From: Hydrolagus affinis
Lineage: Eukaryota
Direction of reading: 5' to 3'
Assembly (NCBI GenBank): GCA_012026655.1
Contig: JAAILG010000565.1
Coordinates: 1 to 64,000 of the forward strand
DNA: 64,000 bases
This document shows positions 11,171 through 11,578 of the stretch, piece after piece; the stretch's first letter is position 1, and each line of letters opens with the position of its first letter. The position numbers were made by a program, and so were the translations under genes. The notes under the pieces are model-generated. The model was not told the DNA's origin. It worked only from the letters and a program-made list of their open reading frames with translations, and ran no database searches.

Positions 11171-11578
11171 TCACATTTTTGTTAATTCTGCAAAACTCAA
11201 TTCGTTGCTGTCCATCCGATAATGACCAGTAAGGCCTTGATGCTGTTGAGGGATCGATATATTCCATCTGAAGCTGTTTATTGATTGCCTCAAAGAGCCT
11301 AAACGCTTCAACAATGTTAACTGAGGCTCACTGGAGTCCTCAATATGGTATGGCATACACTCATGGGGTCCATGGCGGGAAGCATCTAAGCCGGCGGGAT
11401 TACACAAGGCTATAAAAATAATGCATGTTGCCAAGAGAAGAAATATACACATTAATGCTATGATGATTGGCAGAGGATCACCCGTTTCAATGGAGGTGTC
11501 AGACTTCTGAAGTGTCTCAGTGGTTGCCAGAAGAAGGTTAAGAATACTGAAAGTCCCATTCCTGGTTTCTGGATTCAT
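11171..11578 (-). CDS. C10orf105: C10orf105 orthologue; 135-aa single-pass membrane protein nested antisense in a CDH23 intron
   Basis: DPLPIIIALMCIFLLLATCIIF...HECMP...SEPQLTLLKRLGSLRQS...TKM* matches human DPLPMLIALACIFLLLATCLLF...HECMP...SEPQLRLWKRLGSLRLS...STKM*. An acceptor (aaaacag|gagaaATG) lies 5 nt before the ATG at 11578, so the ORF-track start at 11620 is intronic. Confidence 0.93.
   Translation of the reverse strand: MNPETRNGTFSILNLLLATTETLQKSDTSIETGDPLPIIIALMCIFLLLATCIIFIALCNPAGLDASRHGPHECMPYHIEDSSEPQLTLLKRLGSLRQSINSFRWNISIPQQHQGLTGHYRMDSNELSFAELTKM

Follow-up and report, generated by a model that had tools for sequence, protein, structure and literature searches.

What does C10orf105 encode, and what might its protein do? 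The gene sits within a deafness gene and adjoins an immune checkpoint gene, and human C10orf105 appears as a bare name in studies of Alzheimer disease, smoking, leukaemia and blood. (For example, it is listed among Alzheimer genes in PMC8474442; the accessible part of PMC12341078 does not mention it, and that of PMC8967306 holds no match.) A 2025 paper describes its function as unelucidated. Our literature search, which was thin in subscription journals, found no functional study of C10orf105, mouse Gm17455 or the family DUF5527. We considered the gene as it occurs in a chimaera, Hydrolagus affinis, in a window of 64,000 nucleotides (positions 1 to 64,000 of contig JAAILG010000565.1).

C10orf105 in the chimaera and across vertebrates

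The gene and its surroundings consist of these features:

6890..7038, plus strand: CDH23 exon on the left flank of the host intron (cadherin exon)
27679..27739, plus strand: CDH23 exon on the right flank of the host intron (cadherin exon)
11171..11578, minus strand: C10orf105/DUF5527 coding sequence (open reading frame, Pfam match, homologue search)
11584..11618, minus strand: splice-acceptor-like site, a pyrimidine tract and CAG, five bases 5' of the ATG (sequence and a drop in RNA depth)
9500..11170, minus strand: probable 3' untranslated region, which contains repeats at about 9970-10550 (strand-biased RNA reads, AATAAA)
about 61055..61218, minus strand: what we take to be, from its likeness, the cytoplasmic-tail exon of VSIR (VISTA), a second nested gene 49 kb upstream of C10orf105

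The minus-strand reading frame at 11578-11171 encodes 135 amino acids, followed by TGA, in a single coding exon. Residues 9-135 match Pfam's DUF5527 (PF17665) with E = 1.4e-45 and 154.8 bits, versus a curated cut-off of 28.5. A single-sequence search with the product returned 75 homologues. The product is 87% identical to a protein from Callorhinchus milii and 54-68% identical to proteins from sharks and rays, and in a tree it pairs with Callorhinchus (support 100/91). By homology, the reading frame is the chimaera copy of C10orf105, a small gene that is catalogued but unstudied. The frame stays open up to another ATG at 11620, which lies 5' of the acceptor-like site (exon start 11583), and homologues begin at the methionine encoded at 11578, not at the upstream ATG.

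C10orf105 lies antisense within a 20,640-base intron of CDH23 (7039-27678), downstream of VSIR. The host is CDH23: another of its exons matches a cadherin-23 structure in the PDB over its full length (E = 3e-53). The IgV exon of VISTA is on the minus strand 2.7 kb past the end of the window (E = 1e-18 to VISTA structures). The preliminary description, which was made from the DNA alone, had the coordinates, the translation, the gene's identity and the map of the locus right.

The donor of the VSIR tail exon (61055) and the acceptor of C10orf105 (11583), both on the minus strand, share phase 1; splicing that reads through from one to the other would keep the frame, a match with a one-in-three chance of occurring. 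We rejected a VSIR-C10orf105 fusion: the phases fit, yet the product would place the tail outside. The VSIR-bearing intron also contains a stop-free frame of 229 codons (53370-54059, minus strand) with no Pfam match, possibly by chance. Decayed LINE-type fragments lie at 25700-26300, 55450-55840 and 58990-60170 (the last matches reverse transcriptase, E = 8.5e-11), and high-copy SINE-like repeats lie at about 9970-10550 and elsewhere in the window.

C10orf105 is transcribed at a low level from the minus strand. The evidence is from three RNA runs of one sample, whose organism is labelled differently, with 27-30% of the reads covered. Depth was 0-8 across 10553-11605, and nearly all first mates were on the plus strand, which means minus-strand RNA under most stranded-library conventions (we assumed such a convention). 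In the bin 11489-11605, depth was 4.2/5.7/1.4; it was below 1 above 11605 and 0 from 11957 to 12775. This edge fits an exon start at the CAG five bases 5' of the ATG, and the profile of depth and strand does not fit RNA from the CDH23 intron. Strand-biased reads continue through 9500..11170, with a depth of 0-7 outside the repeats, and AATAAA occurs at 10864, 9915 and 9762 in the putative 3' untranslated region. These reads included no splice junctions for a 5' exon, and we found no peptide evidence of translation.

At 11572 the window has G, and all of the covering RNA reads and the X1 contig have A (Pro3 to Ser, as in Callorhinchus). The G is either a private allele or an assembly error. Among the coding differences to run X1 that were listed, four in all, two are silent and two are replacements, which is uninformative about selection.

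Profile searches found 237 DUF5527 proteins, with 33 representatives at 50% identity. The members with a name come from hagfish, lamprey, sturgeon, bowfin, teleosts, coelacanth, lungfish, amphibians, reptiles, birds, platypus, marsupials and rodents; the human protein was not among the hits. A database entry ties the family to mouse Gm17455; the chimaera gene is an orthologue with the same nesting within CDH23. As these sequences indicate, C10orf105 is an intact gene throughout the vertebrates.

In a tree of 36 rows, the proteins track the vertebrate groups loosely, and the gar protein and a second sturgeon protein stand apart on a long branch (support 100/99). Because sturgeon has both types, we conclude that basal ray-finned fishes have a second DUF5527 paralogue (P0138 in gar, P0144 and P0178 in sturgeon). 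This paralogue keeps only the helix, a PxLxLWxRLGSLR block and an E-x-T-Y-L tail, and a word-based search with the gar protein matched only itself. In the fragmentary Hydrolagus genome one copy of C10orf105 was found; searches of the assembly's 245,464 contigs by protein, by the gar paralogue and by the family found no second paralogue.

Other databases said little about the family. Across 44 members, no other Pfam family scored below E = 0.003 and none appeared in more than five members. Sequence and profile searches against the PDB gave weak matches to hydrophobic helices only. Foldseek found no match to the low-confidence model (mean pLDDT 60.5, pTM 0.28).

A predicted single-pass protein with a conserved block and a class I tail

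The protein features are:

11552..11560, minus strand: N-glycosylation sequon N7-G-T in the predicted luminal N-terminus (sequon counts)
11402..11473, minus strand: predicted transmembrane helix, residues 36-59, with Cys44, Cys52 and Cys59 (hydropathy and model)
11402..11404, minus strand: Cys59, a predicted palmitoylation site at the cytosolic end of the helix (conservation of the Cys)
11267..11329, minus strand: the most conserved block, residues 84-104, EPxLxxWxRxxS-hydrophobic-R and then a second S-F-R (column conservation)
11309..11311, minus strand: Leu90 (TTG), where other homologues have Trp (homologue count)
11174..11188, minus strand: C-terminal E-L-T-K-M, a predicted class I PDZ-binding motif (homologue counts, tree, model)

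The protein has one hydrophobic segment (19-residue KD mean of 3.27; the next best is 0.47), and the predicted helix at 36-59 lies in a region, residues 31-60, with pLDDT of 81-97. Residues 1-33 are 30% Ser+Thr and include the sequon NGT at 7-9, as had been described. Among 44 aligned proteins, 41 have at least one sequon on the N-side (the exceptions include both of the aligned rodent proteins), and sequons are dense on that side (72 per 1907 amino acids versus 16 per 3614 on the C-side). The N7 site is 77% conserved. Net charge is negative or zero on the N-side in 43 of 44 proteins and positive on the C-side in 43 of 44; in Hydrolagus it is -3 and -1, respectively. Residues 9-20 are mildly hydrophobic in Hydrolagus (8-residue KD mean of up to 2.27, a proxy for a signal peptide). 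This patch is absent in frogs and rodents, and conserved sequons lie upstream of it. We predict, with considerable confidence, that there is no cleaved signal, that the N-terminus is outside and glycosylated, and that the C-terminus is inside. This agrees with the type III, single-pass layout that had been proposed.

The same proposal had the protein palmitoylated, with three cysteines in or next to the helix. All three are present, but only Cys59 is a good candidate. Cys59 is near-invariant (177 of 181 proteins). Cys44 (75%) falls within the helix's outer third, and many birds and marsupials have lost Cys52 (68%), so the protein likely has a single palmitoylation site instead of three. Given its position and conservation, Cys59 is probably palmitoylated.

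The cytoplasmic region contains the most conserved part of the protein. Mean column conservation is 0.87 for residues 83-99, as compared to 0.71 for the helix, 0.74 for the last five residues and 0.36 for the linker. None of P85, L87, R92, S95 and R97 varies across 44 proteins that span hagfish to rodents, and the second paralogue keeps all five as well. In 31 of the 44, the block is exactly 36 residues from Cys59. Ser95 lies in the context hydrophobic-x-R-x-x-S-hydrophobic-R, which is a consensus for PKC and CaMKII sites, and S/T-x-R/K sites occur two or three times within 16 residues in 39 of the 44 proteins. AlphaFold predicts a low-confidence helix at 89-107. We rejected an amphipathic-helix reading of the basic block, as its amphipathy is not above that of shuffles (median p = 0.33; one row, P0138, was mis-parsed). 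The tail block has no match to a family, structure or atlas entry (Pfam, PDB, Foldseek and atlas). The motif PxLxxWxRxxS, and not the PDZ tail, is the unexplained part of the protein.

In Hydrolagus the block reads SEPQLTLLKRLGSLRQS. Of 181 homologues, 180 have Trp90, and Hydrolagus alone has Leu, by one base change; among the differences listed in the RNA reads, none falls in this codon. The substitution may be a sign that function has relaxed or changed in this lineage. (The block of Callorhinchus deviates too, reading WKRFSSLR.) Besides Leu90, Hydrolagus differs from other DUF5527 proteins in having Leu at position -3 of the tail, which it shares with Callorhinchus. The preliminary description had recognized SEPQLxLxKRLGSLRxS as a conserved block with basophilic kinase sites. 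That description stands, except that the variable position that it gave before KRLGS is nearly always Trp. It had also listed HECMP as conserved. HECMP is present, but it is moderately conserved (C74 is 68%) and is absent in teleosts and cyclostomes.

A C-terminal S/T-x-hydrophobic is a ligand for class I PDZ domains. The pattern [ST]-x-hydrophobic is found at the end of 157 of 180 homologues, versus 46 of 1566 internal tripeptides. (These homologues are bird-heavy and not independent, and one of the 157 is a frameshifted model that matches by chance.) TKM, which is presumably also the end of human C10orf105, had been expected to be conserved across vertebrates. It is not: TEI, TEM, TAM and TYL also occur. 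What is kept is the PDZ class, and because the substitutions keep the class, they strengthen the PDZ reading. In 156 intact tails, -2 is Thr (154) or Ser (2) and the last residue is always M, I, L or V; -1 is free (K, E, A, Q, N or Y), and -4 is Glu in 139.

We also built a tree without the last 12 residues from 42 proteins, which were hand-picked with a preference for intact ends and with two cyclostome rows left out. On this tree, positions -2 and 0 change residue two and three times but never change class, while -1 changes class seven times and positions -5 to -11 change 6-18 times. The distant gar and sturgeon paralogue keeps a class I tail as well (ATYL, ITYL). This is how a class I PDZ ligand varies, not how a peroxisomal signal does. 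We rejected a PTS1 because -1 is non-basic in 35 of the 156 intact tails and -2 is always Thr or Ser.

Among the 23 proteins that lack the pattern, 10 have the motif followed by Trp (the Logan proteins P0026, P0031, P0046, P0099, P0116, P0133 and P0173-P0176), and for another three, a member of the same cluster has the motif intact. The Trp-extended forms differ after the Trp, so we take them to be gene-caller artefacts in which TGA was read as Trp. Such gene models hide the motif in database counts. The hagfish (P0129) and lamprey (P0130) proteins keep the helix and the basic block but lack a class I tail. The PDZ tail may have originated in jawed vertebrates; otherwise, these gene models are wrong.

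We modelled the last 32 residues with the NHERF1-type PDZ1 domain from this genome, the one PDZ domain that was modelled. The score was 0.62, versus 0.01 for the best of three controls. (Among microbial pairs, 51 of 78 solved and 2 of 108 mismatched ones reach the mark for this score; among eukaryotic pairs, 71 of 105 solved and 2 of 126 mismatched ones do.) The model runs share at least 63% of contacts, and the partner's pLDDT is at least 44. Residues 128-135 dock in the canonical way, with T133 at His68 and M135 at residues 19-24 and the GYGF loop. The complex resembles many solved NHERF1-peptide structures, and since such complexes have already been solved, the model shows likeness and not which PDZ domain binds. 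Overall, the sequences and the model make it very likely that the last residues bind the groove of a class I PDZ domain.

Candidate functions

The preferred reading, which we hold tentatively and by analogy, is that the protein is a kinase-controlled accessory for another membrane protein, like MAP17, on PDZ scaffolds of the NHERF, PDZK1 or SNX27 type. In this mechanism, Thr at -2 would contact the His of helix B and Met would enter the GYGF pocket of a class I PDZ domain, which is highly probable from the tail and the model. By analogy, a NHERF-type scaffold would hold or recycle the protein at the cell surface, which is close to an even call. Ser95 and the following S-F-R, as predicted PKC-, CaMKII- or PKA-type sites, would rather likely act as a switch that releases a docking motif around Trp90 from its partner or from acidic lipid. 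Finally, as a guess, the conserved helix may pack on a transporter, channel or receptor, which would thereby be tied to the scaffold; any such cargo is a guess from pure analogy. That NHERF-type anchoring, palmitoylation of Cys59, kinase switching and an accessory role all hold together is plausible but falls somewhat short of probable.

NHERF1 and SNX27 favour an acid at -3, and the Ser, Ala, Val or Leu found there would count against these two scaffolds. The peptides of SLC26A3, SLC22A12, CFTR, PODXL and TBC1D10A (EDTYL) are NHERF/PDZK1 ligands. In an affinity-based cladogram (Suppl. Fig. 2B of PMC9482650), the nearest measured peptides are PESTHM of NHE3 and IQTKM of UNC93A; their neighbours are SLC26A3 and SLC22A12, near CFTR, PODXL and TBC1D10A. 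The C10orf105 peptide itself was not found in the six supplements of that paper that were searched. PMC4472014 describes STHM of NHE3 as a class I motif in work on SNX27, and PMC5896160 reports that MAP17 ends in STPM, binds PDZK1 and is accessory to SGLT2.

Of known systems, MAP17 (PDZK1IP1) and MARDI (SMIM24) are alike in being small, with a Cys after the helix and a class I S-T-x-M tail (PMC5896160). But MAP17 has two hydrophobic segments and no W-x-R-x-x-S block, whereas C10orf105 has one segment and a predicted glycosylated N-terminus. We rejected homology to MAP17 (PF15807), as the profile probability was 5% and there was no sequence match (one exon piece was compared). Phospholemman (FXYD1) has one helix, a juxtamembrane Cys and a basic tail with PKA/PKC sites, and KCNE subunits have one helix and an uncleaved glycosylated N-terminus; but neither matches in sequence or is known to have a class I PDZ tail. 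Similarly, glycophorin C and SMAGP are type III glycoproteins with a C-terminal PDZ ligand, but they differ in their class II EYFI end and band 4.1 motif, and no Pfam match links them to C10orf105.

Several observations count against an accessory role: cyclostome tails lack the motif, Trp90 is lost in Hydrolagus, the basic block does not exceed its shuffles in amphipathy, the aligned rodent proteins lack an N-side sequon, and there is no homology to MAP17. The boldest form of the proposal is that DUF5527 is an overlooked, vertebrate-wide class of regulatory subunit. Its palmitoylated helix would hold on to a transporter or channel, PxLxxWxRxxS would be a docking motif of a new type that kinases switch, the PDZ tail would tie the complex to NHERF-type scaffolds, and gar and sturgeon would have kept a second paralogue. 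We consider this form doubtful.

A protein that lacks transporter cargo is a possible but less likely alternative. It would be a stand-alone, PDZ-anchored signalling adaptor whose Trp/Arg/Ser block draws in a soluble partner, be it calmodulin, a kinase, 14-3-3 or a phosphatase, at a palmitoylated, PDZ-clustered patch of membrane. The block is indeed more conserved than the helix and lies at constant spacing from Cys59, and W90 and F103 are spaced as in a 1-14 calmodulin motif. However, the tail matches nothing known and its amphipathy is not significant, and the helix is conserved from sharks to mammals, beyond what a plain anchor needs.

The preliminary description had also raised an immune transmembrane adaptor acting beside VISTA in leukocytes, which is unlikely. 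Such adaptors (LAT, PAG, NTAL and LIME) share a short ectodomain, a single helix and a candidate palmitoylation site with C10orf105, and VSIR and C10orf105 have a strand and a host gene in common. Expression offers some encouragement: the transcript falls with T-cell genes under immunosuppression (PMC4422721), C10orf105 is correlated with CDH23 in AML (PMC9123811), and it is in a monocyte gene list (PMC12021761). But C10orf105 lacks the CxxC and the conserved tyrosine motifs of these adaptors. Among 181 tails, CxxC occurs in 2, YxN in 1, an ITIM-like motif in 2 and Yxx-hydrophobic in 28; 61 have no Tyr at all, and no Tyr is invariant. C10orf105 is also listed as a marker of dermal fibroblasts (bioRxiv 2024.09.05.611379), so its expression is not confined to immune cells. 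Expression in leukocytes would also fit the accessory-protein reading.

We think it very unlikely that this is a hair-cell or photoreceptor protein that shares harmonin, whirlin or PDZD7 with its host; that host and nested proteins might share PDZ scaffolds had been suggested. Harmonin, MAGI-1 and PIST bind CDH23, whose C-terminus is ITEL (PMC2967513). The VTEI of teleosts and the EITYL of the second paralogue look like ITEL, so binding to harmonin in vitro is possible. Humans share the nesting, and a SNP within C10orf105 acts in cis as a pQTL for CDH23 (PMC13585789). But in PMC7221106, Gm17455 is at 0/0 in RNA-seq of adult outer and inner hair cells, where Cdh23 is at 2.8/1.8 (supplement 5), and at 3.9/3.7 on arrays, versus 6.1/5.9 for Cdh23. 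Gm17455 also has no match in the cluster-marker table that includes Cdh23, among the 12 of 18 supplement files searched. These data describe adult cells; developing hair cells and retina are outside their scope. A likeness to TMIE in the atlas vanishes without the helix. (We rejected a relationship to TMIE, PF16038: the likeness of 0.91 over 166 features is lost without the helix, and the profile comparison gave 3% with one exon piece.)

Last, it is very unlikely that the tail is another trafficking signal (PTS1-like, or a hydrophobic end for ER export) or that the N-terminus is a cleaved signal peptide: TKM resembles variants of SKL and residues 9-20 are mildly hydrophobic, but the tail's residues at -1 and -2 and the sequons upstream of the patch argue otherwise.

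Meaning for the family

Our analysis did not discover a function, but it sharpens the hypothesis for a catalogued gene. What is established here is the orthology, the nesting, the class-conserved PDZ tail, the invariant basophilic block and the second paralogue. Large deletions in CDH23 also remove two further conserved genes. C10orf105 has conserved handles (Cys59, Trp90/Ser95 and the last three residues) at which its function is directly testable. MAP17 proved necessary for SGLT2; if C10orf105 is likewise an accessory subunit, it would be a missing regulator of some membrane protein.
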